Source: an uncultured Pseudomonadota bacterium (GTDB lineage: Bacteria; BMS3Abin14). From it: a DNA stretch of 15,516 nt. Within the stretch, counting starts at the first letter, position 1. Every line of letters begins with the position of its first letter. The position numbers and the translations under genes were made by a program. Under the pieces are notes generated by a model that saw only the letters and a program-made list of their open reading frames with translations, had not been told where the DNA came from and searched no databases. The stretch lies in assembly GCA_964454175.1 (NCBI GenBank), contig CAYVSA010000020.1, positions 1-15,516 of the forward strand, read 5' to 3'. Positions 30 to 15,516 of the stretch are shown piece after piece.

Positions 30-1859
30 TTACTCCACGGTGACGCTCTTTGCGAGGTTCCTGGGTTGATCCACATCAGTTCCCTTGAGTACTGCCACGT
101 AATAGGCAAACAGCTGCAGGGGAAGGGTGGTAAGAATGGGCGTTAGAAACGGCTCTGTTACGGGAACGGTGAAGAGGGAATCGGACGTCTCAACAAGTGC
201 GCTGTCTTCGTGGTCCGCAACGGCAATTACCACGCCGCCCCGGGCCCTGACCTCCTCCAGGTTTGCAAGGACCTTTTCGTAAACGGAATCCTTCGGGGCC
301 AGGAATACGACAGGCATGTTCTCGTCAATGAGGGCAATGGGGCCGTGCTTCATTTCGCCGGCGGGGTATCCTTCCGCGTGAATATAACTTATTTCCTTGA
401 GTTTCAGCGCCCCTTCGAGGGCTATCGGGTAGTTCACCCCCCTGCCGAGATAGAGAAAGTTTGAGTAGCGATAGTATTTTCCCGCGAGGTCCTCAATCTC
501 GCCGGCCCTGGCCAGGATGTCCTCAAGTTTGTTGGGAAGGGCGTAAAGCTCGTCCAGCATCTCCCGGCATCGCTCGGGGGCGAGGTGCCCCCGTTTCCTG
601 CCGAGGTACATGGCAAGGAGGGTCAGGCAGGCAAGCTGGGTCGTGAAAGCCTTGGTGGAGGCAACGCCTATTTCGGGCCCGGCATGGGTATAGATAACCC
701 CTGACGATTCCCTGGTCATCATGCTGCCGACGACGTTGCAGATGGAAAGTACCGAAGTGCCTTTTTTCCTGCACTCTCTCACCGCAGCCAGAGTATCTGC
801 AGTCTCCCCCGACTGGGAGATGGCAACAGCCAGCGTTTTCTTGCCCAGGATCGGGTCGCGGTATCGGAACTCAGACCCGTAATCAACTTTTGTGGGCAGC
901 CCAGCCAGGCTCTCAAACAGGAACTGGCCCACAAGACCCGAGTGCCATGATGTGCCGCAAGCTACTATGACGCACCTTTCCAGGCCCTGGATATAACTGT
1001 CGTCCAGCTCCAGATCGTCGAGTTGGAAGTCCCCGTTGTCTTCAAATATCCTGCCGCGAACGGTGTCGGCAAGGGCTTCAGGCTGTTCATGGATCTCCTT
1101 GAGCATGAAGTGTTTGTATCCGCCTTTTTCAGCCATGACCGGATCCCAGTTAATGGAAACTTCTTCCGGGTCCCGACTGGTCCCCGCAAGATCGGTTATC
1201 ACTACTCCTTCAGAAGTCACCTGCCCGATCTCCTGGTCGTCCAGGTAAATGAAGCGCCGGGTGTGGTGAAGGACTGCGGGGATATCGGAGGCCACAAACA
1301 TCTCACCTTCACCAATACCCACAACAAGAGGCGGCCCGTACCTGGCTGCAACCAGTTTTCCAGGTTCGTCCGCACTGAGAGCCACGATGGCATAGACACC
1401 CTTTATCATTTCCAGAGAGACCCTTACCGCCGCGGCCAGATCTCCAGAGTAGTTCTCTTCAATCAGGTGGGCGAGTACCTCGCTGTCGGTCTCCGAGAGG
1501 ATCTTGTGCCCCTTGTCGGCAAGTTCTTCTCTCAGGTTCCTGTAGTTCTCAATTATCCCGTTGTGAACCAGGACGATCCTGCCTGAACAGTCGGTGTGGG
1601 GGTGAGCATTTTCCTCGTTGGGCCGACCGTGGGTGGCCCAACGAGTGTGGCCGATACCGGCGGACCCGCCGACGGGATTGTTTTTGAGCACTTTTTCCAG
1701 GGCTGTGATCTTTCCAACACTCCTTCGCACCTGGAGGCCGCCGTCTTCAATAATCGCGATGCCTGCTGAATCGTAACCCCTGTATTCGAGCCTCCTCAAC
1801 CCATCCATGAGGATGTCAGAGGCCTCGCCCCTGCCTACATACCCGACTATCCCGCACAT
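30..1859 (-). CDS. glmS: glutamine--fructose-6-phosphate aminotransferase (isomerising), GlmS
   Basis: The 609-aa ORF starts MCGIVGYVG with the N-terminal nucleophile Cys2 of the class II glutamine amidotransferase domain. It contains the LRRLEYRGYDSAG motif and two SIS domains, and ends ...KSVTVE as in E. coli GlmS. A strong SD (AAGGAAAGGGAAAAG) lies upstream on the minus strand. The stop codon is TAA. Confidence 0.95.
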   Translation of the reverse strand: MCGIVGYVGRGEASDILMDGLRRLEYRGYDSAGIAIIEDGGLQVRRSVGKITALEKVLKNNPVGGSAGIGHTRWATHGRPNEENAHPHTDCSGRIVLVHNGIIENYRNLREELADKGHKILSETDSEVLAHLIEENYSGDLAAAVRVSLEMIKGVYAIVALSADEPGKLVAARYGPPLVVGIGEGEMFVASDIPAVLHHTRRFIYLDDQEIGQVTSEGVVITDLAGTSRDPEEVSINWDPVMAEKGGYKHFMLKEIHEQPEALADTVRGRIFEDNGDFQLDDLELDDSYIQGLERCVIVACGTSWHSGLVGQFLFESLAGLPTKVDYGSEFRYRDPILGKKTLAVAISQSGETADTLAAVRECRKKGTSVLSICNVVGSMMTRESSGVIYTHAGPEIGVASTKAFTTQLACLTLLAMYLGRKRGHLAPERCREMLDELYALPNKLEDILARAGEIEDLAGKYYRYSNFLYLGRGVNYPIALEGALKLKEISYIHAEGYPAGEMKHGPIALIDENMPVVFLAPKDSVYEKVLANLEEVRARGGVVIAVADHEDSALVETSDSLFTVPVTEPFLTPILTTLPLQLFAYYVAVLKGTDVDQPRNLAKSVTVE

Positions 1860-3250
1860 CAGCTCTTTTCCCTTTCCTTGACCGCTCTCTCGCGGAATTT
1901 TGGTGCCCAGTCATCCTTGACGGTCTGTTTACTCCTGGCGATGCCAAGTGAGTCTGGGGGAAGGTCCGAGGTTATGGTCGATCCCGCAGCGGTTATGGCG
2001 CCTTTTCCCACCTGAACCGGTGCGACCAGCATTGTCCCGCTGCCGATGAATACGCCGTCCCCTAACACTGTCTTGTGTTTGGAAAACCCGTCGTAGTTGC
2101 ATGTGACAGTTCCGGCTCCCACGTTGACTCCTTCACCGAGCTGTGAATCTCCGATGTAAGTGAGGTGGGACGCCTTGCTGCCCTTTCCAATTGTGGATTT
2201 TTTTACCTCGACGAAGTTTCCGATCTTTGAACCCTCCATCAGACGGGTCTCGGGCCGGAGGTGGGCGAAGGGCCCCACGACTGCGCCTGTATCGATGATG
2301 GACTTCTCTATTACGGAATAGGGCTTCACCTCGACTTCAGGGCCGATGATCGAGTCCTTTATTACTGCGCCGGGATGGATCACAGACCCTGAACCAACGC
2401 GGGTCTTGCCGTAAAGGAAAGTCATGGGGTGGAGGATGACGTCAGATTCGATACGGACAGTCTCATCAACGTAGGTTGTTTCCGGGTCAATAATCCGAAC
2501 GCCGGAGTCCATAAGTTTTGCCAGTATTTCCTTCTTCATGACCACCTCCATGGCAGCGAGTTGGGCAAGTGTGTTGATGCCCATGGCCTGTGCCGGGTCC
2601 TCGATCACGCAGGTAGATACAGTCTTGCCTGTTTCCGATGCTGCCAGAACAAGATCTGTCAGGTAGTACTCCCCCTGGGCGTTGTCGTTTCCCAGGCGCG
2701 GGAGCTCCTCTGTCAGAAAACGGGATTCAAAGGCGTATACGCCCATGTTGCCCTCATTGATCTTTTCCTGACCCTCAGTGAGATCCCTTTGCTCGCGAAT
2801 GGCAACAGCCCTTCCCGAACCGTCTCTTATTATTCTGCCGTAGCCCTCCGGATCACCAAGGATGGATGTCATGACGGTGACGGCAGCAGAGCTTTTCCTG
2901 TGTTCCTTCAGCAGGTCTTCAAGGTTTTTCCGGCTGAGCAGGGGCACATCCCCGGAAAGGACCAGGACTGTACCCGAAAACCCCCTGATCAGGTCAAGGC
3001 ACTGCAAAAGTGCGTGTCCTGTGCCGAGTTGAGGCTCCTGGATCACAATTTCGCAGTTCTCAAGATCCTTGACGGCAGCCTCTACAAGGTCGGCCCTGTG
3101 TCCCAACACTACCAGTATCCTGTCGGCTGAGATCTCCCCGGCTTGCGAAAGAGCATGCTTGATGAGCTGTTTGCCGCCGAGGGTGTGAAGGACCTTGGGG
3201 ATTTTTGAGTTCATCCTGGTACCCTTGCCGGCGGCAAGGATGACGGCCAT
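1859..3250 (-). CDS. glmU: bifunctional UDP-N-acetylglucosamine pyrophosphorylase / glucosamine-1-phosphate N-acetyltransferase, GlmU
   Basis: [27 protein letters not shown] aligns with the E. coli GlmU N-terminus ([28 protein letters not shown]). The C-terminal left-handed beta-helix hexapeptide repeats and the NYDG motif are present. The six-frame ORF extends to 3304, but the Met at 3248-3250 has an AGGAAA SD 8 nt upstream and matches the homologue's start. The TGA stop overlaps the glmS ATG by 1 nt (CTGATG). Confidence 0.93.
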   Translation of the reverse strand: [463 protein letters not shown]

Positions 3251-3371
3251 CAGCGGACTTTCCTGCGGATGTGACATAAACGTTTTGAAAGCTCCTGACT
3301 GCATTGATAGCGGCTAAACCGCGATTGGGGATTATTCCAGCAACCCTAATGACTGTCAAGGGTTTGACTGA

Positions 3372-3445
3372 GGTTTGAGCTGGTTCCATGTTCCAGGTTC
3401 CATGTTCCATGTTCCAATGCTCCAATCTCTAAGGCTCTAATCTCC
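3372..3445. repeat. tandem heptamer array (GTTCCAT/GTTCCAG x5) decaying into GCTCCAAT/CTCTAAG/GCTCTAAT units, in the divergent intergenic region
   Basis: Read directly from the sequence: GGTTCCAT GTTCCAG GTTCCAT GTTCCAT GTTCCAAT GCTCCAAT CTCTAAG GCTCTAAT. On the minus strand the array reads (ATGGAAC)n, which creates the spurious ORF MEHWNMEHGTWNMEP. Confidence 0.7.
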
Positions 3446-3486
3446 ATTTTCCAGTGCTCTATCACCGACCACAAACTGTAAAGGTT

Positions 3487-3515
3487 TTGAAATAGAAGTG
3501 TTGTTCTGGTATCAT
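3487..3515 (+). promoter_or_regulatory. putative sigma70-type promoter (TTGAAA - 17 nt - TATCAT) for the plus-strand cluster
   Basis: TTGAAA at 3487-3492, a 17-nt spacer, then TATCAT at 3510-3515, about 65 nt upstream of the 3581 start. This is motif inspection only. Confidence 0.35.
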
Positions 3516-3580
3516 TTCTGGGATATTTTAAGACATATCCTGAACATTCGTCTCAAATGGGGGTCGCCTGACGGCGGGAA

Positions 3581-4129
3581 ATGAAAAACCGGGTACAGAA
3601 ACTGGAAAGCAGTATCAACCAGCTGAAAGCTCAGTACGACCAGTACTTTCTGGGAGTTTTAAAGGCGCCTCCAGCCAAACTGGCAGATGAAGTGGCTCGT
3701 GAGGTAAGGTTTCTGACGTCAAAGAAAATGCAGAGTACCGCACTTCAGTTCAAACTCCAGCAGATAATTGCACGCTACAACACCTACCTGAATTTCTGGC
3801 AGAGGAGCATCAGGGACCTGGAAGAGGGCCGGACTACCCGTCGGAAGGACAAGGGCGCCGCGGCGGCAAAAGCCAGGGAGGGTGTTTTCCAGGTCAGTTC
3901 CATCGATTCCGACAAGGTTCAGGTGGAGTCACTTTACAGAAAGCTGACTAGTGAATACAGGGAAGCTGGCAAAAAACAGGTTCCCGGTCTGCCTAAGGTC
4001 AGGGAAATGGTCAAACAGCAGACTGATCTGATAAAACAGAAGTTTAACTGCGATACCGTTGAATACAGGGTTGTTGTCGAAGAGGGTAAGGTAAAGATCA
4101 AGGCCAACCCTGTAACAGGAAAGGGGTAG
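3581..4129 (+). CDS. hypothetical protein, N-terminal coiled-coil/helical half and beta-rich C-terminal half; first gene of the SPFH cluster
   Basis: 182-aa ORF with an ATG start and a GGCGGG purine-rich stretch upstream. The N-terminal 100 residues are strongly helical and rich in K/Q/E/L (MKNRVQKLESSINQLKAQYDQYF...). The C-terminus (EYRVVVEEGKVKIKANPV) looks like beta strand. No family was recognised. It is in the same frame as the next ORF and ends in TAG. Confidence 0.55.
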   Translation: MKNRVQKLESSINQLKAQYDQYFLGVLKAPPAKLADEVAREVRFLTSKKMQSTALQFKLQQIIARYNTYLNFWQRSIRDLEEGRTTRRKDKGAAAAKAREGVFQVSSIDSDKVQVESLYRKLTSEYREAGKKQVPGLPKVREMVKQQTDLIKQKFNCDTVEYRVVVEEGKVKIKANPVTGKG

Positions 4130-4138
4130 GGGCAGAAA

Positions 4139-4651
4139 TTGGCACGCTCAAAGGCAGCAGACCTGCTCGAGAAGCTTACCCGGTTCGTACCGGGTATTTC
4201 AGGGTACCAGGACAGGGAAAAGAGGAGGGCTTCGGACAAAGCTGTCAGGGACAGCGCAGCCGGAGCGGTTCTCAAGTGCAGGGAGCTTGTGCTGGGTATG
4301 ATGTCGGAACTCTCGCGGAGCAAAGGGCTCTCCAACCTCAAGTCGGTGGGTGTCCTGGAAGGTACGGCCGTGAAGCTGGAACGACTCGAGGATGAGCTGA
4401 GGTATGCTTCTTACGGTTACTCAGGCTTTTTCGACCGTGACGGAATAAGTATTGATGAACTTGAGGACCTCTATGATTCAGACCTGTCCCTCCTGGAGAG
4501 TGCTGGAAAACTCGAGGGCATGGTGGGAGACTCACCCCCACAGTCCGCATCTTCAGGGTGGGTGAAGGACCTGGGTGATGCGGTCGATGAGCTTTCGGGA
4601 TCGGTGAGCAGCAGGAAAAAGAAACTGGACTCTGAAAGGGGCCGAGTGTGA
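4139..4651 (+). CDS. hypothetical acidic helical protein, translationally coupled to the downstream SPFH gene
   Basis: 170-aa ORF starting at TTG 4139, 9 nt after the upstream TAG and in the same frame. GGAAAGGGG lies 11 nt upstream. Its TGA stop overlaps the GTG start of the SPFH gene (GTGTGA). There is no TM segment and no recognised family. Confidence 0.5.
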   Translation: MARSKAADLLEKLTRFVPGISGYQDREKRRASDKAVRDSAAGAVLKCRELVLGMMSELSRSKGLSNLKSVGVLEGTAVKLERLEDELRYASYGYSGFFDRDGISIDELEDLYDSDLSLLESAGKLEGMVGDSPPQSASSGWVKDLGDAVDELSGSVSSRKKKLDSERGRV

Positions 4652-5772
4652 GCGAATTTATTGAAGTCCTGGAGTGGGAGGACTCCACCGGGGAGGAAAT
4701 GGTGTACAGAATTCCTCCAGATGGGACCGGGGAGATAAAGTTTGGTGCCCAGTTGGTAGTTAATGAAAATCAGGCTGCTGTGTTCTTCCGGGACGGACGC
4801 GCACTGGATGTATTGGGTCCGGGCCGTCACACCCTCACTACCCAGAACCTTCCGCTGCTGACGAAGGCTCTGAGCTTGCCCTTCGGGTTCAAAAGCCCCT
4901 TCCGGGTTGCTGTCTACTTCGTGGCGATGAAGACCTTTACGAACATGACCTGGGGAACGAGAGACCCGGTTGCCTTCAGGGACAGCGAGTTGGGGATGGT
5001 CCGCCTCAGGGCCCACGGAAACTTCACCATCCGGATAGTCCAGCCCATGCTGTTCGTTAACGTGGTGGTTGGAACTCAGGGCGTGTACCTGACCGATGAG
5101 ATCTCGGATTTTTTAAGGGCGGTGATCGTGTCAGGACTCAACGATCTTCTTGGTGAACATGTGGAAACTCTCCTGGACCTTCCCCGGATTTACGAGGAGC
5201 TCGGCGCAGCAGCAAAAGCCAGGCTCCGGGACGAATTCTTAAAGTACGGTATTGAATTAAGAGATATGATAATCAGGGCGATAACACCCCCGGACGATGT
5301 ACAGAAGATAATCGATGAAAAGGGCAGTATGCGGGCTGTTGGGGAGGACGATTATCTGCGTTTTAAGGCGGCGCAGTTCATGGGTAACGCAGCCGAATCC
5401 CAGGGGGAGGGCGCCGGCTCAACCGCCCAGTCGGGCATGGGCCTCGGTCTGGGAGCCGGTTTCGGCATGATGGTTCCGGCTTTTCTCCAGGGGGCACTTG
5501 AAAAGAAGGAACTTAAAAAAGCGGGCCGGGCATTTTCCTGCCCCCAGTGCGAGACATCCCTGCCCGAAGATGCCAGATTCTGCCATGTTTGCGGGACGGC
5601 TCTGCTCAAGGGTCAGATTTGCTCCGGATGCGGCCAGGACCTGCCGGCGGATGCCAGGTTCTGCTATCAGTGCGGAGTTGAGGTTAAGAAACTTGCGAGA
5701 AATTGCCCTCACTGTTCGAAGAAAGTTCCTGATGCGGCCAGTTTCTGTCTCAATTGCGGCGAAAAACTCTAA
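4648..5772 (+). CDS. SPFH/Band-7 superfamily protein of the Band_7_1 (YdjI-like, 'putative virion core protein') type with three C-terminal tandem zinc ribbons
   Basis: The N-terminus MSEFIEVLEWEDSTGEEMVYRIPPDGTGEIKFGAQLVVNENQAAVFFRDGRALDVLGPGRHTLTTQNLP closely parallels B. subtilis YdjI (..VVEWEEF.DDMIFYKW......IKKGSRLIIRPGQDAVFLNNGR...). A Gly/Met-rich linker follows. Three tandem zinc-ribbon repeats then close the protein, each C-x2-C, 10 residues, then ARFC-x2-CG: CPQC..ARFCHVCG, CSGC..ARFCYQCG and CPHC..ASFCLNCG. There is no TM segment. The start is GTG. Confidence 0.8.
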   Translation: MSEFIEVLEWEDSTGEEMVYRIPPDGTGEIKFGAQLVVNENQAAVFFRDGRALDVLGPGRHTLTTQNLPLLTKALSLPFGFKSPFRVAVYFVAMKTFTNMTWGTRDPVAFRDSELGMVRLRAHGNFTIRIVQPMLFVNVVVGTQGVYLTDEISDFLRAVIVSGLNDLLGEHVETLLDLPRIYEELGAAAKARLRDEFLKYGIELRDMIIRAITPPDDVQKIIDEKGSMRAVGEDDYLRFKAAQFMGNAAESQGEGAGSTAQSGMGLGLGAGFGMMVPAFLQGALEKKELKKAGRAFSCPQCETSLPEDARFCHVCGTALLKGQICSGCGQDLPADARFCYQCGVEVKKLARNCPHCSKKVPDAASFCLNCGEKL

Positions 5773-5807
5773 CGTTATGGGGTCGGACCCCAGGGTAATG
5801 ATCCGCC

Positions 5808-7124
5808 ATGGACTCCTGCTACGTAAGTCATAGTTGTCCTCAATGCGGGGGTGATGTCCTTTTTACCGAGATGACCACCGGTACCAGGTGCAGGTACTGC
5901 GACGCTGGGTTCCTCGTGCTGGGCGGCAGGTCTGCCTGGCTCAACTTTCTTATTAAACCCAGGTTGGGGGCCAGGGAGACGGCAAGGGCAGTTACGAAAA
6001 CTGCAATTGACCGTGGGTGGGGCCCTCCCATGCTTCGCTCGGTAATTCAGTTCTACCTTCCCTACTACAGGACCACCGGGCAGGTTGTGAGGTGGTTGAA
6101 AGGTGAAAAGAGGGTTGAAGGCCCCTCTCCGAATACGATCGTGGAAAAGATCAAAACGAGGCATGCTGATATCATGCGCCCTGCCTTTGATGATCTCTGG
6201 TCCGGCTTGTTCTCACCCGGTGTCAGAGCGCAGACCCTGAATCTTTTTGTGGCTACCGAAGAAAATGCCGGGAAGCTGGCCTTCGTTCCCGTCAAAGCAA
6301 AAAAGGAGGAGTTTCTGCGTGAGACCAGGGGGGGGTTGACCAGCGGACTGAATGAAGCCGGCCTCAAGGTGTTCGAGGAAAAGACATTTTTTATTTCGGA
6401 ACGACACACAGTTCTCTACTTCCCCCTGTCTATGGCAGAGGTGAGGGAAGGTGGAGGGCCCCGGTGGCTTCTGTTCGATGCGGTTGGCGGCGGCTACTTA
6501 AGAGACATCACCCGAAATGACATGGAGACTCTTCTCGACAGCATGGGTATTTCCGGGGATGGATCGCCTGGAGAAGGCCGGTTGAAACTGGTTCCCCTGA
6601 TATGTCCCGAGTGCGCGGGGGACCTCGATGATGAGCCGTATGCCGCCGTCAGGTTCTGCCGCAGCTGCGGCAGGGGATGGGAGTCAGCGGGAAGCCGCCT
6701 GAAAGAGAGAGAGTGCCTCTGGACCGGTGCACCTGAAAAAGAGGATGACACGGGCACATTGTACCTGCCCTTCTGGAGGAGACAACATTCAGGCAGCATC
6801 TTTCACGTGCCGGCCTTCGGTATACGATCTCCCAGGCTTCTTTACAACGTGTCGGTTCACTACCTGAATGCCGGGTTTGACGCAGAACCCATACCCTACA
6901 GCAGGAGGTTGAGGATACGAAGGCTGCCTGCGCAGCTGCATGCCGACGAGGCTTGGAATGTCGAGAAGATGGGCTCGGCCCGATCCCGCGGTTTGGAAGG
7001 ATCTGGTGAAAACGACTCCGGACAGGCTCTGCTTATGGTACCATTCAGGAAAAGGGGTACAGACCTTGTAGACCTCATTCACGGGGTAGCTGTACCGCTT
7101 TCCGCTCTTGATGGAAGGGTTTGA
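5808..7124 (+). CDS. double zinc-ribbon protein (YdjG-like architecture), function unknown
   Basis: 438-aa ORF. An N-terminal zinc ribbon (CPQCGG..CRYC) is at residues 10-31 and a second (CPECAG..FCRSCG) is at about 257-283. There is no TM segment. It sits between the SPFH gene and nfeD, and its TGA stop overlaps the nfeD start region. Confidence 0.7.
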   Translation: MDSCYVSHSCPQCGGDVLFTEMTTGTRCRYCDAGFLVLGGRSAWLNFLIKPRLGARETARAVTKTAIDRGWGPPMLRSVIQFYLPYYRTTGQVVRWLKGEKRVEGPSPNTIVEKIKTRHADIMRPAFDDLWSGLFSPGVRAQTLNLFVATEENAGKLAFVPVKAKKEEFLRETRGGLTSGLNEAGLKVFEEKTFFISERHTVLYFPLSMAEVREGGGPRWLLFDAVGGGYLRDITRNDMETLLDSMGISGDGSPGEGRLKLVPLICPECAGDLDDEPYAAVRFCRSCGRGWESAGSRLKERECLWTGAPEKEDDTGTLYLPFWRRQHSGSIFHVPAFGIRSPRLLYNVSVHYLNAGFDAEPIPYSRRLRIRRLPAQLHADEAWNVEKMGSARSRGLEGSGENDSGQALLMVPFRKRGTDLVDLIHGVAVPLSALDGRV

Positions 7125-8586
7125 TAGTGTGAACGAAGAGTCATTTGGCAAATACCGATCGCTGGCAGCCCTGATCACGTTCCTCATCATGTTGATCACT
7201 GCCGCAGCCGGAATACCGGATGCCTGTGCAGCCGGGAAAAGCTCCCTTGACACAGGTCAGACGGCTGAGCCCGTCAGGGTTGCCGTGATAACGGTAGACG
7301 GTGCAATAACGCCTGTAGCTGCTGAGTACATCGAGGATGCTATCAAGGAGGCCGACTCAGCGGGTGACTATCTCCTGGTTATAAAACTGGACACACCCGG
7401 CGGGCTGATGAGTTCAATGAGGAGCATAGTTAAGGACATCCTGGCCTCTCCACTGCCGGTAGCGGTCTACGTATCTCCATCGGGCGGGCGGGCGGCTTCA
7501 GCGGGAGTATTCATCACCATGGCCGCACACGTGGCTGCCATGTCCCCAGGCACCAATATCGGCGCGGCGCACCCGGTGAACATAGGCGGTGGGGGGTTCT
7601 TCGGCAAGAAAAGGGAGGAAGATGGGGACGGCCAGAAAAAGGAGGATAAAGAGCCCGGTGCCAGCGGTGAGAAAGAGGAAAAATCCCTCTCCGATGAGAA
7701 CATCATGGCCCGGAAGGTGGTTAACGATACTGTTGCTTTCATAAAGAGTATCGCGGAAAAGAACGGGCGGAACGCCCGGTGGGCAGAGAGATCCGTTCGG
7801 GAAAGCATATCCTCAACCGAAAAAGAGGCCCTGAAAGCCGGAGTTATCGATCTGGTGGCAGAAGATATCGATGATCTTCTTGAAAAAATGGAGGGGCGCA
7901 CCGTGGTTGTCTCAGGAAAGGAGATGACGCTTGCCCTGTCCGGTGCTGTCGTAGATGAAAGGCCCATGGATCTCAGGCACAGGATCCTTTCAACAATAAC
8001 TGACCCCAATGTGGCCTATATGCTCATGATGTTGGGGATATACGGGCTGTTTTTCGAGCTGGCCAACCCGGGAGTGATCCTGCCGGGTGTCCTGGGCGGG
8101 ATCGCACTTGTCCTCGCTTTTTTCGCCTTCCAGGTCCTGCCGGTGAACTACGCGGGGATACTGCTGATAGGTCTTGCCCTGGTCCTATTCATACTTGAGA
8201 TAAAGGTTGTCTCCTACGGTATGCTTTCGGTGGGAGGCATTGTATCTGTGTTTTTAGGGAGCATAATGCTCCTGCGCTCCGTGGAGCCGTATTACCGTAT
8301 ATCCCGAGTGTTGATATTCGGTATGACTGGATTTACGGCGCTGTTTTTCCTGGTGGGTCTGGGTCTCGCTTTAAAGGTACAGCGCAGGAAACCCGTTACG
8401 GGAACGGAAGGTCTTGTTGGGGAAACAGGGGTGGCGGCAACTGACCTGTCTTTGAGTGGAAAGATCAGGGTCCACGGGGAGATCTGGACGGCGGAAAGCA
8501 AGGTGCAGATAAGCGCGGGGCAGGCGGTGAAGGTCACTGGTATGGAGGGGATGGTGCTGCTTGTTGAGATTGATGAGAGTGATTGA
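7111..8586 (+). CDS. nfeD: NfeD-family membrane-bound ClpP-class serine protease (long form, stomatin operon partner protein) with a C-terminal OB-fold
   Basis: An N-terminal signal/TM segment is followed by a ClpP-like domain with VAVITVDGAITPVAAEYIEDAIKEA, LVIKLDTPGG and YVSPSGGRAASAGVFITMAAH (Ser nucleophile). A multi-TM region follows, then a C-terminal NfeD OB-fold (GKIRVHGEIWTAESKVQISAGQAVKVTGMEGMVLLVE). The ORF opens at TTG 7108. ATG 7111 was chosen here. GTG 7129, with GGAAGGG 10 nt upstream, is an alternative start. Confidence 0.85.
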   Translation: MEGFDSVNEESFGKYRSLAALITFLIMLITAAAGIPDACAAGKSSLDTGQTAEPVRVAVITVDGAITPVAAEYIEDAIKEADSAGDYLLVIKLDTPGGLMSSMRSIVKDILASPLPVAVYVSPSGGRAASAGVFITMAAHVAAMSPGTNIGAAHPVNIGGGGFFGKKREEDGDGQKKEDKEPGASGEKEEKSLSDENIMARKVVNDTVAFIKSIAEKNGRNARWAERSVRESISSTEKEALKAGVIDLVAEDIDDLLEKMEGRTVVVSGKEMTLALSGAVVDERPMDLRHRILSTITDPNVAYMLMMLGIYGLFFELANPGVILPGVLGGIALVLAFFAFQVLPVNYAGILLIGLALVLFILEIKVVSYGMLSVGGIVSVFLGSIMLLRSVEPYYRISRVLIFGMTGFTALFFLVGLGLALKVQRRKPVTGTEGLVGETGVAATDLSLSGKIRVHGEIWTAESKVQISAGQAVKVTGMEGMVLLVEIDESD

Positions 8587-8597
8587 AATTGTCCCAG

Positions 8598-8618
8598 GAC
8601 CCACGGCCCATGACCCAT
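8598..8618. repeat. three tandem heptamers GACCCAC GGCCCAT GACCCAT immediately downstream of nfeD
   Basis: Read directly from the sequence at 8598-8618. The adjacent GTCCCAGG (8591-8598) is the reverse complement of CCTGGGAC in the downstream array. Confidence 0.5.
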
Positions 8619-8649
8619 GTGGATTCGAACTCTCAGAGAAATGAAGATT

Positions 8650-8677
8650 TGAAACTTGTTTTACTGGTTGTAAATAG
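8650..8677 (+). promoter_or_regulatory. putative internal sigma70-type promoter (TTGAAA - 16 nt - TAAATA) upstream of the stomatin gene
   Basis: Motif inspection only. It lies inside the 152-bp nfeD-stomatin spacer, 60 nt upstream of the ATG at 8739. Confidence 0.25.
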
Positions 8678-8688
8678 CCGTTTTTGTT

Positions 8689-8723
8689 GACCTGGGACCT
8701 GGGATCTGGGACCAGGGACCGAT
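8689..8723. repeat. tandem heptamer array GACCTGG GACCTGG GATCTGG GACCAGG GACCGAT in the stomatin 5' leader
   Basis: Read directly from the sequence. It ends 5 nt before the consensus SD AAAGGAGG at 8726-8733. Confidence 0.65.
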
Positions 8724-8738
8724 CCAAAGGAGGAAACC

Positions 8739-9521
8739 ATGTTTGGTGCTAGCTACCTGGTTGTTGGGGTTGTAATAGCTGTGATCATGTTCCTGTGGTC
8801 GGCTATCAAGGTCATGAAGGAATACGAGCGGGCAGTAGTGTTTTTCCTCGGCCGTCTTGTGGGAACCAGGGGGCCGGGCCTTGTAATAATCATCCCTGTC
8901 CTGGAAAAAATGGTGCGCATCAGTCTCAGGCTTGTCACAATGGATGTCCCACCCCAGGATATAATCACCCGGGATAATGTTTCGGTCAAAGTTAACGCGG
9001 TGGTTTATTTCAGGGTCATGGATCCGGCAAAGGCTGTCGTCGAGGTGGAGGACTATTACTACGCAACGAGTCAGTTGGCTCAAACGACCCTGCGAAGTGT
9101 TCTGGGCCAGGCTGATCTGGACGACCTGCTGGCGGCGAGGGAGAAGATCAACCACCAGCTCCAGGATATCCTCGATACGCAGACAGATCCCTGGGGGATC
9201 AAGGTTACTATGGTGGAGGTCAAGCACGTCGACCTTCCCCAGGAAATGCAGCGGGCAATGGCCAGACAGGCCGAGGCAGAAAGGGAGCGGAGGGCCAAGG
9301 TAATAGCTGCTGACGGTGAGTACCAGGCATCCGACAAACTTACTCAGGCAGCCAATATTATGTCAGACAATCCCCAGGCCCTGCAGCTGAGATATCTGCA
9401 GACCCTGCGGGAGATCGCCACCGAGAACAATTCCACGACGATCTTCCCACTGCCAATGGATTTAATCGGAGCCTTTATGGACAAGATGAAGAAGGGCGGC
9501 GGGGATAAAGGTCAAGAGTGA
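8739..9521 (+). CDS. prokaryotic stomatin (SPFH/Band-7, p-stomatin PH1511 type)
   Basis: An N-terminal hydrophobic hairpin ([17 protein letters not shown]) is followed by the canonical stomatin core: [59 protein letters not shown] and [25 protein letters not shown] coiled-coil ([31 protein letters not shown]) and a hydrophobic C-terminal tail follow. A perfect SD AAAGGAGG sits 5 nt upstream of the ATG. Confidence 0.92.
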
Positions 9522-9735: not shown

Positions 9736-10527
9736 ATGAAGATCCACAGTGTTCACCCTAAATTTCTGAGTGATGAAACCATCACGGCAGAACACGACTT
9801 TCTGCACAAACTTTTCGACGCCCTCATGGATAAAGAAGAAGATCACGGGTTTGGAGACGATCCCGATTACAACCGTTTCACCGGGAAGTGTGGTGTCCTC
9901 TATCCCAGGCACAGGATGCTGATGGAAGAGATGGATATCCGTGGTACTCTTCACGAAACCCTGCTGGACAGGCGGGAGATCCATCCCGACGAGATGGATT
10001 ACTGGTCACCTTCTGATGATGATGTTTTTAAGGACAGGGATGAGCTTGCTTCGGGAGGCGAGGCGGGAAGGTTTTCCCTCGGCGGCCAGGAAAGCGCCGA
10101 GGATGCTGCGGGGAGGATGGATGTTTGCTCTGCCCTGGCTGATACCGTAGAGGATGAGATCCTCCTTGGGCTGTGGAGGATCTACGGTTTCACAGTCATG
10201 GAACGTTCTTACAACCGCTACAGACTTCTGTCCGACCCACTCCGTGGTAAAAAGAGGGGGCAGGTCTGGATCCTCTTCGACCTGATGATCGAAGAAGCCC
10301 TCAGCGTCAAGCCTGACGAAAATGGACCCAGGATCGCCTACGAAACAGTCTGGGAAGCCCTGGAGCCCGAAGCTTCCGAAGTTGAGAAAGCCGAATTCGA
10401 AAAGATCATTGACGGTCTGGAACCCGGCAAGATCAGCGTCCAGGCCAGAAAATTTCTGTCTCAGACTGCAGCAAGACAAAGCGCTGATGATCTGTTGAAA
10501 TCTCACATGTTGAAGTACTATCTTTAG
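9736..10527 (+). CDS. putative pyrimidine-dimer DNA glycosylase-like protein (T4 endonuclease V / Pyr_excise family) with a long acidic C-terminal extension
   Basis: The N-terminus MKIHSVHPKFLSDETITAEHDFLHKLF matches the family's N-terminal signature. In T4 endoV this is [28 protein letters not shown]; in bacterial homologues it is MRLWSLHPKYLD. An AGGAG SD sits 7 nt upstream of the ATG. At 263 aa the protein is about 100 aa longer than typical members, because of a D/E-rich C-terminal half. The functional call is of moderate confidence. The CDS call itself is firm. Confidence 0.55.
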   Translation: MKIHSVHPKFLSDETITAEHDFLHKLFDALMDKEEDHGFGDDPDYNRFTGKCGVLYPRHRMLMEEMDIRGTLHETLLDRREIHPDEMDYWSPSDDDVFKDRDELASGGEAGRFSLGGQESAEDAAGRMDVCSALADTVEDEILLGLWRIYGFTVMERSYNRYRLLSDPLRGKKRGQVWILFDLMIEEALSVKPDENGPRIAYETVWEALEPEASEVEKAEFEKIIDGLEPGKISVQARKFLSQTAARQSADDLLKSHMLKYYL

Positions 10528-10544: not shown

Positions 10545-13500
10545 TCAGGCGCTGGATCCGTCCAGCGCTTTTATTATGGTCGCGATGAGCTGCTCGGGTC
10601 GGTAAGGTTTCTGGATAAAGCCGACCTGGGGATATTTGTTCAGGATAGTGGCGGTTATCTCCTCCTCCGTGTAACCCGAAGACAGAATTATCCTCTCGCT
10701 GCCATTTATCTCGAAGATATTTTCAAGGACAACGTCGCCTGTCATTCCCGGCATGGTCATATCCAGCAGGACAAGAGAGACCCTGTCCGAGTTTTCCCTG
10801 TAGGTCTCCAGACCTCTAACACCGTCCTCTGCGGTGAGTACGTCAAAACCCAGCAGTTCGAGCATCATTTTAGCAACTTCGCGGACGCTTTCCTCATCGT
10901 CCACAACCAGTACTGTTCCCTCAAATTTCTGTTGACCCAGGACCGGTTCTGCTCTCTTTTCGGGTTCAGGAGCAGTTCCGTCGCTGTAGGGCAGAAAAAT
11001 CTTGACGGATGTCCCTTTGCCGGGCTGGCTTCGTACTCTTATGGAGCCGTGGTGACCCTTCACTATGCCGAGTGCGGCTGCGAGGCCAAGACCCCTGCCC
11101 GTGTCCTTGGTGGTGAAGAAGGGCTCAAAGATCCTTTCAATTATTTCCTCCTCCATTCCGGAGCCGGTGTCTTTTATCTCAAGACATGAGTACCGTCCCC
11201 CGCTGTGTTCCTCGGCAACGAATCGACTGACCAGGTCTCCTGGTTCGCAGTTCTCAACAGAGGTGGTGATCGTAACCGTTCCGCTATTTTCAGCGGCATC
11301 GGAGGCATTTGTTATCAGGTTCATCAATAACTGCTGTATCTGCGCTGTATCAGCTTCTACGTAGGGCAGCTCCTCTGAAAGTTTGTAATTGACCTTTACT
11401 CCCTTAGATATCCCTGTTGACAGCAGTTCGGTCATCTCTTTAACCAGGGTACTCATGTCCGTCCTGGTTATGACGAATTTACCGCGTCCCGAATAGGCCA
11501 GCATCTGGTTGGTGAGTTCCGCTGCGCGCTGCGCTGCCTTTTCGATCCTGTCAATATTCTTTTTCAAGGGCGACTCGTCATCGAGCTTCATCTGCAGAAG
11601 GCTGACGTTGCCCATAATGCCCATGAGTATGTTGTTAAAATCGTGGGCAATGCCGCCTGCAAGCACACCCAGGCTCTCGAGTTTCTGCGTGTGCTGGATC
11701 TGCTCTTCGAGCCGTTTTGCTTCTTCTTCGTGGAGTTTCAGTTCAGTGATGTCACTGAAGACAGATTGGTATTCAGTTACTTCGCCCTTCAAGTCCACTA
11801 GTGCCCTGTCTGTCCTCATCAGCCACCGTTCACTGCCGTCCTGTGATATTTTGAGCTCCCTCGCTGCCAGGGGATTGACCTGATCGAGGGATGAGTAACT
11901 CTCTTTGTCCTCCCCGGTGCCCTGTTCGTAAATCACCTCGTGTATGTTTTTGCCAACCAGGTCCTCCCAGTTGGTTTTGAAGAAACTGCAGAAAGCCTTG
12001 TTGACGAAAGTCAGGGACAGCTCCTTGTCAATGCGGCAGACCAGTGCAGGCATGTCCTGAACAACCGCCCTGTATCTGGCAGAGGTCTCCCGCAGGGCGT
12101 CTTCTGCCTGTTTCCTCCTGGTAAAATCGGCGAAAATGGCTACAACTCCCATGACGAAGTTGCCCTCCATCATCGGAGATGTAGAAAGGCTGAGGTTGAT
12201 AAGCGACCCGTTCTTTCTCCTCCTGACGACATCCCTTGCAAGTATTCGTTTCCCGAGAGACGCCATTTCAAAAAATTTCTGGAACTCTTCCTCTCTCTCT
12301 TCAGGAATGATAGGCAGCGGCTTACCCAGTACCTCATTTTCCGTCCAGCCGAACATCTCCTCGGCAGCAGGGTTCCAGAGGGTGATGAGCCCGTTCAGAT
12401 CCGCCACGACTATCGCCAGGGGAGAGGCCGAAAACAGGGCGGTCAGGGTGCTGTTAACCTCTCTGAGGGCGGACTCCATGGTAATAGCTACAGAGATATC
12501 CCTTATAATACCCTGATAACCAGTTGGCTTTCCGTTCTTGTCCCTTACAAGGGTCGCTGTGTTCAGGATGGTCTTTTTGTTCCCCGCAGCAGTGGTGAAC
12601 GTGGATTGAAACTCCTTCACGTAGCCTTTTTCTTCCAGGTTTTGCGAGAACAACCTCCTTTTTTCCTTGTCCGGGTAGATCACCTCAACAAGGTTCAACT
12701 CTTTGAGTACCTCCAGGCTGGGAGCGTCCAGCAGGTCCTGGCCCGCTGGGTTGCACTCGACTATCCTGCCTTCAAGAGTTGTGAAGTACACTGTGTCAAG
12801 CGACTCCTCGAAAAAGGTTCGGAACCTCTTTTCACTCTTGTCCAGCGCCTCTTCAGACTCCTTTCTCTCTGTGATGTCAACTGCCGAACAGACATAGCCG
12901 GTAAATCCGTCCTCGCTGTCGAACATGGCTGTAGCAGAAAAAAAGACAGGGATGATCCTTCCGAGCCTGGAAACCATCCATGCTTCAGCGCTCAGAGACG
13001 ATGCATGATCGTCCCTGTCATCGGGGACAAGGCCCTTTATGGGTGATCGTTTCTCAACAAAGAGGCTCTCGAAGGGCCTGCCAACCAGATCCTCTTCCGG
13101 GTATTCCAGAAGGATGGTAGACGCCCTGTTGGCGGTCTCGATCCTGCCTTCAGATGACACGACAATGAGAGCGTCGTGCATGGTTTTCAGGATGTTGTCC
13201 ATGTAGTCCATTGCCGGCATCACAACGGTTTCATACCTTCTGAGGTCATTGACCATGCTCATGAAGCTTGTGGCCAGCTGTCCCAGTTCGTCCGAAGAGT
13301 CATCCTTAATAGTGATGTCCAGATTTCCCCTGGCGACTTCTTCAGTAGCTTTCTTGAGGGCCTGAATGGGGCCGGATATGGACCTGGCAACAAGGAGGCC
13401 GATCAGAAGGGTCATTGCCAGGGTGACCAGAGAAATGGACAGCATCCTGTTTTTGAGAACGGCTGCTTCATTTAAAACCTCTGTTTTTCTGGAGGTTTCG

Positions 13501-14399
13501 GCCCTTATGTTGATGTCCATGAGACTGGAGGCGTTGAGTCTGATAAGCCTGGCGTAGGAGTAGAATTTTCTCAAAAAATTGCGGTGCTCTGACAGATCGA
13601 AGACCTCACCCCTTCTCTTCTTGTCCCTGTATGTTCTGACTAGTGCTTCCCCGCTTTTCCTGAAATCAACACCCAGCTGCTTCAGCTGTCCTGTGAGCGT
13701 GCCTGCCTCCCTGTTTCGGGTCCGCTTTGTGATGACCTCGATCTGCTCCTGCATGGAGGATGTTCGCAAGGCGAATTTTGAAATGTCCTCCTCACTGCCG
13801 GTAATAAGACCGATTAAAAGGTGTACTTCGGCTCTTTTAACAAAACTTGTCACCTCCGAGGAAGCGGTTATGGATTCCTGCCTGTTGAGAAAGTCTGTGA
13901 AAAATTTGGTCATCTTCAGGCCGCCTTTCCTTATTAGGCCTGAAGATTCATTTATATTGTGGAAAAGCTCCAGATTGTCTTTCGCAATGGACCCGGTCTG
14001 GCTGCCTGAAGCTTCATCATAGTGGCTCAGGAGTGTTTGACTGGAAGTTTGAAACCTGCCCACATCCGACTGGATCCTGTTGAGTATAGACCGTCCCTCA
14101 GGTTCGTGGACCTTCTCATCGAGAACTGAGAGGGCTTCCAGTACTGATGCGAACCTTGCCTCGTAAGTCTGTCTGTCAGACGGGTCGCCCAGGGCTACAT
14201 ACATGAAGATGTGGGTCTCGGCCCGCTTTATGTGGCTGGTCACGTCGTTGGAGGCAGAAACCAGCTCTCTTAACCGCTTTTCATCACCCTGAAATGAATC
14301 GGCTATCCTCTGGGTCGTAAAGTATCCGAGCACGCCCGAGATGCTGGCTACAAGGGCGATGGCAAAGATACCGATCAGAAGTTTTAGCCTGATGCTCAT
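10545..14399 (-). CDS. hybrid sensor histidine kinase/response regulator: TM - periplasmic sensor domain (about 290 aa) - TM - HAMP - 4x PAS - HisKA - HATPase_c - REC
   Basis: The ORF runs to 14483. Met at 14397-14399 (MSIRLKLLIG) has a GGAG SD 9 nt upstream and sits directly before the first TM helix (LKLLIGIFAIALVASISGVLGYF). A second TM helix (LVTLAMTLLIGLLVA) is followed by HAMP (GPIQALKKATEEVARGNLDI...LATSFMSMVNDL). Four PAS-like modules follow. The H-box is LAGGIAHDFNNIL. The N/G boxes are NLITNASDA and DTGSGM..GRGLGLAA. The C-terminal receiver has VLVVDDEESV and LLDMTMPGMTG. Confidence 0.9.
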   Translation of the reverse strand: MSIRLKLLIGIFAIALVASISGVLGYFTTQRIADSFQGDEKRLRELVSASNDVTSHIKRAETHIFMYVALGDPSDRQTYEARFASVLEALSVLDEKVHEPEGRSILNRIQSDVGRFQTSSQTLLSHYDEASGSQTGSIAKDNLELFHNINESSGLIRKGGLKMTKFFTDFLNRQESITASSEVTSFVKRAEVHLLIGLITGSEEDISKFALRTSSMQEQIEVITKRTRNREAGTLTGQLKQLGVDFRKSGEALVRTYRDKKRRGEVFDLSEHRNFLRKFYSYARLIRLNASSLMDINIRAETSRKTEVLNEAAVLKNRMLSISLVTLAMTLLIGLLVARSISGPIQALKKATEEVARGNLDITIKDDSSDELGQLATSFMSMVNDLRRYETVVMPAMDYMDNILKTMHDALIVVSSEGRIETANRASTILLEYPEEDLVGRPFESLFVEKRSPIKGLVPDDRDDHASSLSAEAWMVSRLGRIIPVFFSATAMFDSEDGFTGYVCSAVDITERKESEEALDKSEKRFRTFFEESLDTVYFTTLEGRIVECNPAGQDLLDAPSLEVLKELNLVEVIYPDKEKRRLFSQNLEEKGYVKEFQSTFTTAAGNKKTILNTATLVRDKNGKPTGYQGIIRDISVAITMESALREVNSTLTALFSASPLAIVVADLNGLITLWNPAAEEMFGWTENEVLGKPLPIIPEEREEEFQKFFEMASLGKRILARDVVRRRKNGSLINLSLSTSPMMEGNFVMGVVAIFADFTRRKQAEDALRETSARYRAVVQDMPALVCRIDKELSLTFVNKAFCSFFKTNWEDLVGKNIHEVIYEQGTGEDKESYSSLDQVNPLAARELKISQDGSERWLMRTDRALVDLKGEVTEYQSVFSDITELKLHEEEAKRLEEQIQHTQKLESLGVLAGGIAHDFNNILMGIMGNVSLLQMKLDDESPLKKNIDRIEKAAQRAAELTNQMLAYSGRGKFVITRTDMSTLVKEMTELLSTGISKGVKVNYKLSEELPYVEADTAQIQQLLMNLITNASDAAENSGTVTITTSVENCEPGDLVSRFVAEEHSGGRYSCLEIKDTGSGMEEEIIERIFEPFFTTKDTGRGLGLAAALGIVKGHHGSIRVRSQPGKGTSVKIFLPYSDGTAPEPEKRAEPVLGQQKFEGTVLVVDDEESVREVAKMMLELLGFDVLTAEDGVRGLETYRENSDRVSLVLLDMTMPGMTGDVVLENIFEINGSERIILSSGYTEEEITATILNKYPQVGFIQKPYRPEQLIATIIKALDGSSA
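10548..10575 (+). terminator. rho-independent terminator hairpin (GGCGCTGGA-tccg-TCCAGCGCC followed by TTTTATT) for the 9736-10527 gene, overlapping the last seven codons of the convergent kinase gene
   Basis: A perfect 8-9 bp GC-rich stem with a 4-nt loop, followed by a T-tract on the plus strand. On the minus strand the stem encodes ...ALDGSSA*. Confidence 0.55.
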
Positions 14400-14506
14400 T
14401 TGCGGTTTCTCCGGAGTTTCCTTCCTGCGGCTGTCCTGGCACCGACTTTCTGGACAAGGCCGGCTGGGAACCTTAAGGAACATGCCTGAAAAATCGAGAA
14501 CACTGG

Positions 14507-14559: not shown

Positions 14560-15516
14560 TCAGCCCTCGAGGGTCTCTCTGACAATTTTGATAAGATCCG
14601 CCGGCATGTAGGGTTTCTGGATGAATCCGGAAAGCCCCTTGCCGCTCAGCTGGCCTGTGGCTTCATCTTTCGAAAAGCCGCTGGAAAAGATGATCTTTAC
14701 ATCCTGGCTTATTGCCTTCATGCGATCGAACACCTCAATGCCTCCCATGTGGGGCATGGTCAGGTCGAGTATCACCAGGTCGATCTGGTCCTGGTTCTTC
14801 TCGAAGACATCAAGTCCCTCCCTTCCGTCAGGCGCAAGAAGAACTCTAATGCCCAACTCGGAAAGGACCATGGAGGCGATGTCGCGGACAGACTCCTCGT
14901 CGTCGATCACCAGCACGGTCGCTTCACTTCGCCACTGGTCGCTGGACCAACTGACTTTTTCGGTTTCTTTCGTCCGTTTGTCCGAAGCGGGCAGGAGGAC
15001 CTTGAAGGTCGTACCTTTCCCTGGTTCACTGTATATTTTTATGGCTCCACGGTGTCCCCGCACTATTCCCAGTACGGCGGCCATGCCCAGACCCCTTCCC
15101 ATGGGTTTGGTGGAAAAGAAGGGGTCGAATATCCTTTCCTGGACTTCATTTGTCATGCCGCAGCCGGTGTCGGAAACTTCAAGGAATACATATTGTCCGC
15201 TCTCAAGCTCATCGTCCAGGAGGGTGTCGGTGAGGTAGCTTTTGTCGCACTCACGACAGCCCGTGGTAACGGTAACGACTCCGCTGGTTTCCTCAACGGC
15301 GTCGGAGGCATTGGTGATCAGGTTCATTACCACCTGGCGGATCTGGGACGAGTCGGCTTCGACGGTGGGTATGCCCTTTGAGAGGTTGTACCGGACAAGG
15401 GCGTTCTTTGCCACTGCCGCCTGGAGCAGATGTCCCATCTCCTCCACGAGACTGTTCAGATCAAGGGGTTCTACCACGAACCTGCCTTTGCCCGAATAGG
15501 CGAGCATCTGGTTGGT
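14560..15516 (-). CDS. hybrid sensor histidine kinase/response regulator, C-terminal HATPase_c + REC portion (5'-truncated by the window edge)
   Basis: The translation continues in frame to the window end (rc of the last bases gives TNQMLAYSGKGR). Its first Met is internal. The N/G boxes are NLITNASDA and DTGCGM..GRGLGMAA. The receiver has VLVIDDEESV and ILDLTMPHMGG. It is clearly paralogous to the C-terminus of the 10545-14399 kinase. Confidence 0.85.
   Translation of the reverse strand, partial: TNQMLAYSGKGRFVVEPLDLNSLVEEMGHLLQAAVAKNALVRYNLSKGIPTVEADSSQIRQVVMNLITNASDAVEETSGVVTVTTGCRECDKSYLTDTLLDDELESGQYVFLEVSDTGCGMTNEVQERIFDPFFSTKPMGRGLGMAAVLGIVRGHRGAIKIYSEPGKGTTFKVLLPASDKRTKETEKVSWSSDQWRSEATVLVIDDEESVRDIASMVLSELGIRVLLAPDGREGLDVFEKNQDQIDLVILDLTMPHMGGIEVFDRMKAISQDVKIIFSSGFSKDEATGQLSGKGLSGFIQKPYMPADLIKIVRETLEG

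Follow-up and report, generated by a model that had tools for sequence, protein, structure and literature searches.

Why would a single cluster of genes encode two different SPFH proteins, a zinc-ribbon protein, a membrane protease and two small proteins without a Pfam family, and encode no PspA? This question is raised by six genes, here called P1 to P6, on the plus strand (positions 3581-9521) of a 15,516-nucleotide (nt) stretch of DNA, referred to below as the window (contig CAYVSA010000020.1 of assembly GCA_964454175.1), from an uncultured Pseudomonadota bacterium. With modest confidence, the region can be read as an operon-like, lineage-specific fusion of three separable modules around SPFH scaffolds, with a proposed membrane role. 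The first module would join P2, a four-helix-bundle partner, to P3, a soluble SPFH protein similar to YdjI/SamI. The second would be P4, the local version of a zinc-ribbon protein encoded downstream of Band_7_1 genes, whose studied representative is YdjG/SamG of Bacillus. The third would be P5-P6, a classical dyad of an NfeD1b protease and a p-stomatin.

The basic layout agrees with an earlier interpretation of the window made from its letters, the sequence-only reading. The six tightly packed plus-strand genes that it described are all present as open reading frames (ORFs) in an operon-like arrangement, and its recognition of two different SPFH paralogues, P3 of the Band_7_1 type and P6 of the Band_7 type, also holds. 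The junctions measure +9 (P1/P2), -4 (P2/P3), +35 (P3/P4), -17 or -14 (P4/P5) and +152 nt (P5/P6). The two values at P4/P5 reflect the start of P5, which is either a TTG at 7108 or an ATG at 7111, the overlap of 14 nt being counted from the ATG. Transmembrane segments are found in P5 and P6, and none in P1-P4; apart from the NfeD-stomatin pair, the cluster encodes no integral-membrane component.

In the first module, P3 (4648..5772, plus strand) is a protein of 374 residues with a GTG start. It matches the Pfam family Band_7_1 (PF13421) at 4.3e-61, scoring 206.6 bits where the cutoff is 24 and covering profile positions 2-210 of 211, and it also matches DZR at 3.7e-21. The SPFH domain (nt 4705-5334) is followed by a Gly-rich hydrophobic linker (nt 5431-5499, residues 262-284) and by three C-terminal zinc ribbons (nt 5539-5592, 5620-5673 and 5704-5757, within residues 298-370), in which 12 Cys are arranged as three CxxC-x10-CxxC units. 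No segment reaches the threshold for a transmembrane anchor (KD19>=1.6), and a sequence search of the PDB returned no solved relative of the SPFH domain. YdjI, which is likewise soluble, combines a segment of low complexity with a zinc ribbon at its C-terminus (PMC8581546), and it is recruited to the membrane by the membrane proteins YdjG and YdjH (PMC8581546; 10.64898/2026.02.06.704340). The predicted architecture of P3, a soluble SPFH domain with a low-complexity segment and C-terminal ribbons, is of this YdjI/SamI type, as had been proposed.

P2 (4139..4651, plus strand), encoded immediately upstream of P3, is a soluble protein of 170 residues with a TTG start. In its AlphaFold2 model (predicted local distance difference test, pLDDT, 84; predicted template modelling score, pTM, 0.81), a short N-terminal helix precedes four helices of 25-35 residues, which form a four-helix bundle. 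The N-terminal helix (residues 5-16) is amphipathic, and nowhere else in P2 is the hydrophobic moment as high. Two conserved loops stand out, PGxxGYxxxExRRxxDKxxR (nt 4187-4249) and YGYxGFFD (nt 4406-4435), and the motifs PGxxGY-x5-RRxxDKxxR and YGYxGFFD are invariant in the family. P2 has no Pfam match at all, and none of 26 diverse members of its family belongs to a Pfam family. An NCBIfam model from Leptospira, LIMLP_15305 (NF047596), aligns with P2 over positions 40-170 of 175 (E 3.6e-5), but its score of 23.7 bits is far below the cutoff of 210, which makes P2 a distant relative of that family and not a member. This model is a name without known function, and within a limited literature search a single paper mentions LIMLP_15305, without annotation. 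The fold matches of P2 are generic helical bundles that give no functional clue.

More is learned from the neighbours of P2. When metagenomes were scanned with the P2 alignment as the seed, at least 499 relatives were found; neighbourhoods were counted for the best 80 of these, whose P2 homologues are 30-48% identical to P2 of the window, and 72 had enough downstream sequence to be informative. In 62 of the 72, a Band_7_1 gene lies downstream of the P2 homologue on the same strand, at a gap of 200 nt or less in 47 and with one intervening gene in 15. Among the ten loci where no Band_7_1 gene was seen, seven have less than 1.5 kb of downstream sequence, so that only three truly lack it. Four of these seven short contigs (loci L027, L051, L054 and L061) carry the intervening gene, and thus any Band_7_1 gene would fall past the contig end. 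Genes outside the dyad vary from locus to locus (IMP dehydrogenase, a succinyl-CoA ligase-like protein, aldehyde dehydrogenase/CysS and others), which argues that the dyad is not a by-product of synteny. Moreover, the Band_7_1 partners carry three, two or no ribbons, and P2 therefore tracks the SPFH domain and not the ribbons. Such recurrence of P2-P3 in unrelated contexts, and that of P3-P4 described below, had not been foreseen by the sequence-only reading.

In a recurring subgroup, mostly derived from soil, the intervening gene codes for a protein that starts with a ribbon and continues with a Pro-rich linker, a single transmembrane segment and a Toastrack domain (DUF4097), an arrangement abbreviated here as ZnR-TM-Toastrack. 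The subgroup comprises L030, L032, L035-L037 and L058; for instance, at L037 (9968-13588) a ribbon-led protein of about 180 residues without a Pfam family is followed by the P2 homologue, ZnR-TM-Toastrack and a Band_7_1 protein with three ribbons. Some of these loci then carry a protein of 219-225 residues with an N-terminal hydrophobic, signal-like segment. The protein encoded upstream of P2 in this Toastrack-containing subgroup (c3) was considered as a relative of P1 and rejected, the two being unrelated. In a distant lineage, L091 (9992-12803) has P2 and P3 homologues, a gap of about 300 nt and then a Band_7 SPFH paralogue, with no NfeD; it is a second case of a Band_7_1 gene beside a classical SPFH gene, here for a membrane-anchored Band_7 paralogue.

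From these observations a broader proposal can be made, tentatively and at rather less than even expectation: the P2 family may be an undescribed, near-obligate partner of soluble Band_7_1 scaffolds, the two forming a widespread PspA-independent module for membrane stress or scaffolding. Its interface would vary by lineage, with ZnR-TM-Toastrack in the recurring, mostly soil loci, YdjG-like ribbon proteins elsewhere and the NfeD-stomatin cage here. In a limited literature check, the available parts of the SPFH and phage-shock protein (PSP) surveys PMC2636767, PMC11237479 and PMC9239133 do not describe the P2 family.

Could P2 nevertheless stand in for PspA? The sequence-only reading had noted that PspA is missing and had supposed that two small helical proteins, as candidates for divergent PspA-associated or novel effector components, replace it. 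The absence is borne out. No match to PspA_IM30 or to TPM was found at E<=1 in the seven window proteins scanned, and no PspA homologue was found in about 100 related loci with a query that we take to be the E. coli PspA sequence. The supposed replacement fares differently. Neither P1 nor P2 matches PspA_IM30 or Snf7 in Pfam at E<=1, and the matches listed for 26 members of the P2 family do not include PspA_IM30; the PDB, searched by profile with shallow and with deep alignments, returned no PspA, Vipp1 or CHMP entry; and hhalign gave the P2 family a probability of 0.6% against the same PspA query. The long alpha1-alpha2 hairpin of ESCRT-III and PspA is likewise missing from the modelled folds of P1 and P2, the 25-35-residue helices of P2 being much shorter than the ESCRT-III hairpin. 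A putative identity of P1 or P2 as divergent PspA is thus not supported by homology. A weaker form of the idea, in which P2 (or P1) is a cryptic membrane remodeller of the ESCRT-III/PspA type and a functional replacement of PspA, draws on the amphipathic N-terminal helix followed by long helices, and on the closed conformation of ESCRT-III, which is also a helical bundle. It draws as well on the position of P2 beside a YdjI-like SPFH gene, like that of PspA in the Bacillus operon, and on the pairing of some P2 relatives with Toastrack, reported as a phage-shock partner in PMC11237479. Against the negative profile searches and the short helices, these features leave a cryptic remodeller improbable.

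The description of both small proteins as helical was correct for P2 and incomplete for P1. P1 (3581..4129, plus strand) is a basic soluble protein of 182 residues (37 K/R against 21 D/E) without a transmembrane segment. Its AlphaFold2 model (pLDDT 81) opens with a bundle of three helices (residues 2-82), continues in a disordered linker and ends in a beta-alpha-alpha-beta-beta domain. This C-terminal part (residues 114-178, nt 3920-4114) matches the NCBIfam model MXAN_5187_C of Myxococcota (NF041621) at 1.8e-10, with 41 bits and thus above the cutoff of 30, the model again being a name without known function. No Pfam family scored above threshold, and structure comparison gave only generic matches to helical bundles. 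P1 accompanies the cluster solely in one lineage, and its distant relatives occur in unrelated contexts, for instance P0010 in an ileS-lspA-lgt context without an SPFH gene. P1 is a lineage-specific add-on to the cluster.

The second module raises the question of how far P4 resembles YdjG, as had been proposed. P4 (5808..7124, plus strand) is a soluble protein of 438 residues with two four-Cys zinc ribbons (nt 5835-5900 and 6603-6668, residues 10-31 and 266-287) that lie 234 residues apart. About 50 residues after each ribbon comes a [YF][IL]P[FY]W-type motif, and then another domain. P4 has no Pfam domain above threshold and no transmembrane-like segment. An exhaustive profile search collected 664 cluster representatives of its family at E<=1e-3 (174 at E<=1e-10), nearly all of 440-520 residues and with the same order of ribbon, about 50 residues, [YF][IL]P[FY]W motif and about 190 residues, which is then repeated. 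A hydrophobic segment occurs in 27 of 149 representatives and is rarely C-terminal. Internal duplication of P4 was tried as an explanation and rejected in the direct comparison, in which hhalign of the N- against the C-terminal half aligned the ribbon alone; the idea of a duplicated module therefore rests on the repeated ribbon-x50-PFW pattern and on split genes at L089. At that locus (964-4781), P2 and P3 homologues are followed by three P4-related genes, in which modules like the N half and the C half are separate ORFs, through either a genuine split or an assembly frameshift.

Part of the likeness to YdjG holds, loosely. P4 has two ribbons, and its family may, at weak similarity, share the YpeB-related/NTF2-like core of YdjG. 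A lineage-only profile of P4 aligned with a YdjG-type protein at just the ribbon, but a profile hidden Markov model (HMM) of the broad P4 family scored about 10 bits against YdjG-type proteins with their ribbons deleted, compared with 0.5 bits or less in 40 shuffles, and the alignment was colinear through two conserved strands. Two YdjG-type proteins were used. One, from Saprospiraceae, carries two ribbons in tandem and has a transmembrane segment at its C-terminus, and its gene comes right after a Band_7_1-SHOCT gene; the other is an approximate query that we take to be B. subtilis YdjG, checked against published primers only at its ends. The homology of P4 to the YdjG core beyond the ribbon is thus suggested, albeit weakly. 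The other part of the likeness does not stand: P4 lacks the two tandem N-terminal ribbons, its spacing of 234 residues recurring throughout the family, and it lacks the C-terminal transmembrane segment.

The gene order is informative here as well. A P4-family or other ribbon-led gene lies directly 3' of a Band_7_1 gene at L020, L019 and L089 and in Paracoccus, Vibrio, Gemmatirosa and Novosphingobium. At L020 (Syntrophorhabdaceae), the Band_7_1 gene is followed by a P4-like gene and there is no P2, NfeD or stomatin, and a P4-like gene also follows Band_7_1 at L019, from a deltaproteobacterial metagenome-assembled genome (MAG). In Gemmatirosa and Novosphingobium, the gene after Band_7_1 encodes a ribbon with DUF4178. 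On pFER4 of Paracoccus ferrooxidans (L103), genes for TelA, DUF2927, a Band_7_1 SPFH protein and a two-ribbon protein stand in a row. On a Vibrio coralliilyticus plasmid (L104), the Band_7_1 protein ends in GYF_2 and not in ribbons, and genes for TIR-domain and TRAFs-binding-domain proteins are near. As predicted from these genes, the P3-P4 pairing is of the YdjI-YdjG type, though P4 has neither tandem ribbons nor a transmembrane anchor.

The third module is conventional, and the assignment of P5 as a long-form NfeD and of P6 as a p-stomatin was confirmed by Pfam and by alignments with PH1510, PH1511 and stomatin. P5 (7108..8586, plus strand; 492 residues), whose start overlaps the end of P4, matches NfeD1b_N (1e-16), NfeD_membrane (4e-24) and NfeD (1e-14). 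After an N-terminal transmembrane segment come a ClpP-like protease domain, a membrane domain with multiple spans and, at the C-terminus, the NfeD OB domain. Against the Pyrococcus PH1510 protease it scores 4e-34, and its S131 and K203, conserved in 13 orthologues, line up with positions 83 and 124 of the PH1510 chain, equal to Ser97 and Lys138 at an offset of +14, which we take to be the catalytic pair. A low-complexity insertion of 44 residues, rich in Glu, Lys and Gly, interrupts the protease domain (residues 158-201, nt 7579-7710); all 13 lineage orthologues have it, in differing lengths and sequences, and it is absent from PH1510. P6 (8739..9521, plus strand; 260 residues), of the SPFH1 type, matches Band_7 at 1.2e-38, human stomatin at 1e-74 and the stomatin PH1511 at 4e-65, and has an N-terminal hydrophobic anchor, a transmembrane-like segment within residues 1-28. 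The pair thus has the NfeD1b domain set with its Ser-Lys pair and an adjacent stomatin, 152 nt downstream on the same strand. SPFH1b and NfeD1b are described as a universal dyad in PMC2636767.

Do these modules belong together? Conservation of the gene order had been put forward as a check, and the order is indeed kept in relatives, but the full order is seen in one lineage. Close and mid-distance relatives have all six genes in unchanged order, at L001-L003, L007, L009-L014, L017 and L025, where identity to the window proteins is 47-81% for P1, about 50% for P4 and 73-90% for P3. The flanks are syntenic too, with glmS-glmU upstream and usually a Pyr_excise gene downstream, and these loci therefore belong to a single uncultured lineage in which synteny is general. 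A simpler view would be that P1-P4 and NfeD-stomatin are two or three independent operons lying side by side by chance, with no common function. Elsewhere the modules do stand apart: most loci have P2-P3 alone, L020 has P3-P4 alone, and NfeD-stomatin is the dyad described above. The complete MAG genome CP070682.1 (L008/L016) keeps P1-P4 intact beside an NfeD of 329 residues, without most of the membrane domain and the OB domain, and without an adjacent stomatin; its glmS is shortened. The syntenic flanks and the 152-nt gap with tandem repeats before P6 point the same way. Nevertheless, in seven of 11 lineage loci the stop of P4 runs 4 nt into the start of P5 (14-17 nt in the window and L001). 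Retention of this 4-nt overlap, though P4 is only about 50% identical, implies maintained translational coupling. A scan against shuffles found no terminator-like site better than chance inside the cluster, and L091 provides a second, distant case of a membrane-anchored Band_7 paralogue after P2-P3. Chance juxtaposition is therefore rather unlikely, without being far-fetched, and the P4/P5 overlap supports a presumed co-expression of the upstream genes with NfeD-stomatin.

Several points weigh against the fusion of three modules. The six-gene order is confined to one uncultured lineage, where conservation may be inertia and is weak evidence of coupling, and the truncated NfeD and missing stomatin of CP070682.1 count in the same direction. 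In addition, the supposed protein contacts and co-transcription are deduced from the genes, the modelled folds of P1 and P2 offer no functional clue through their generic matches, and the putative homology of P4 to YdjG beyond the ribbon is weak and depends partly on the approximate B. subtilis query.

If the three modules do act together, a working arrangement can be outlined. Stomatin and NfeD would form an integral-membrane cage with the protease, and P3 would oligomerise on the cytoplasmic face. Since P1-P4 have no membrane segments and YdjI of Bacillus needs YdjG/YdjH, P3 would be docked at the membrane by partners, namely P2, with its amphipathic N-terminal helix and aromatic conserved loops, and P4, with its ribbons and YdjG-like core; the Gly-rich hydrophobic linker of P3 may add to the docking. 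All of them would then act in membrane-stress sensing or in quality control of microdomains, with no ESCRT-III/PspA effector encoded in the cluster.

A different function, as an anti-phage defence system or the cargo of a mobile element, was also considered. SPFH and zinc-ribbon proteins do occur in some variable islands, and the Band_7_1 locus of the Vibrio plasmid adjoins the TIR-domain and TRAFs-binding-domain genes. By contrast, no PADLOC family was matched except for a marginal coiled-coil match of P1, and the only PHROG matches were to ribbons and generic SPFH. Viral contigs hold no relatives of P2, plasmids hold relatives of neither P2 nor P4, the chromosomal site beside glmS-glmU is fixed across the lineage, and the guanine-cytosine content is even over the region, with no shift. 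Defence or cargo is thus a very remote prospect, and the fusion around SPFH scaffolds is the reading retained for the region.

The surroundings of the cluster add some detail. A promoter had been predicted upstream of P1. The site, which is sigma-70-like, exists (3487..3515, plus strand; TTGAAA-17-TATCAT with a TG extension) and has 10/12 consensus matches, but six such sites were found where shuffles gave 4.1, and without enrichment it is a candidate only. Upstream on the opposite strand are glmU and glmS. Downstream lies a gene (9736-10527) with the Pfam families Pyr_excise (pyrimidine-dimer glycosylase) and DUF1722, which is found 3' of the cluster in most lineage loci, and no terminator-like site separates it from P6; the best such site (10547-10570) is 3' of the Pyr_excise gene. 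This gene is probably unrelated to the cluster and could be co-transcribed with it. Convergent to the cluster, on the minus strand, are an ORF of 1312 residues resembling a hybrid histidine kinase (10545-14483) and, beyond it, a second kinase/receiver ORF (14560-15507) that extends past the end of the window, the domains of both being judged by reading the sequence. Intergenic tandem heptamers flank the cluster (GTTCCAT x4.9, 3383-3446) and occupy the P5-P6 gap (CCCATGA x3.9, 8593-8619; GACCTGG x4.6, 8689-8720). No Rfam family was found in the window.

There is nothing unusual in the assignments of P3, P5 and P6; what is new in the locus is the fusion of a Band_7_1 module to an NfeD-stomatin dyad, found here in one uncultured lineage. 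Of greater interest is the P2 family, uncharacterised but widespread in metagenomes, absent from Pfam and a near-constant neighbour of Band_7_1. Soluble Band_7_1 proteins are the least understood SPFH branch, and their one studied member, YdjI/SamI, is known just in the context of PspA. P2 thus provides a testable handle on the recruitment or regulation of these scaffolds, and its links to Toastrack and NfeD-stomatin suggest a role in envelope stress without ESCRT-III. The six-gene fusion, for its part, is a natural system for studying cooperation of a peripheral with an integral SPFH scaffold. The advance is useful for SPFH and envelope-stress biology, yet incremental.

Three known systems help to place the cluster. 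The first is the set of phage-shock contexts surveyed by Ravi et al. 2024 (PMC11237479), in which Toastrack and band-7 proteins are partners of the phage-shock system. Some P2-P3 relatives fit this picture, with ZnR-TM-Toastrack between both genes, and so does Novosphingobium, where Band_7_1 occurs with DUF4178, DUF350 and polyamine genes as in that survey. However, the survey is anchored on PspA and NfeD does not occur in it, and its available part holds no description of the P2 family or of a PspA-free P2-Band_7_1 dyad.

The second system is the pspA-ydjGHI (pspA-samGHI) operon of Bacillus subtilis, where the soluble Band_7_1 protein YdjI/SamI is encoded beside the zinc-ribbon protein YdjG/SamG (PMC8581546, PMC11237479). 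P3-P4 repeat this pairing, and the N-terminal half of P4 is weakly similar in profile to the YdjG core. Nevertheless, the Bacillus operon has PspA and the TPM-domain protein YdjH, both of which the window cluster lacks, and its YdjG gene precedes the SPFH gene, whereas P4 follows it. YdjG is anchored by a C-terminal transmembrane segment; P4 has none, its ribbons are 234 residues apart and its module is duplicated. YdjI has one ribbon and P3 has three, and P2, the conserved upstream partner, has no counterpart in Bacillus.

The third system is the NfeD1b-SPFH1b pair PH1510-PH1511, which shares with P5-P6 the full long form, the Ser/Lys pair and an adjacent, co-directional stomatin (PMC2636767). 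In contrast to PH1510, P5 carries the insertion of 44 residues in its protease domain, and, in contrast to the pair as a whole, the start of P5 overlaps P4, so that a second SPFH module is joined to the dyad here.

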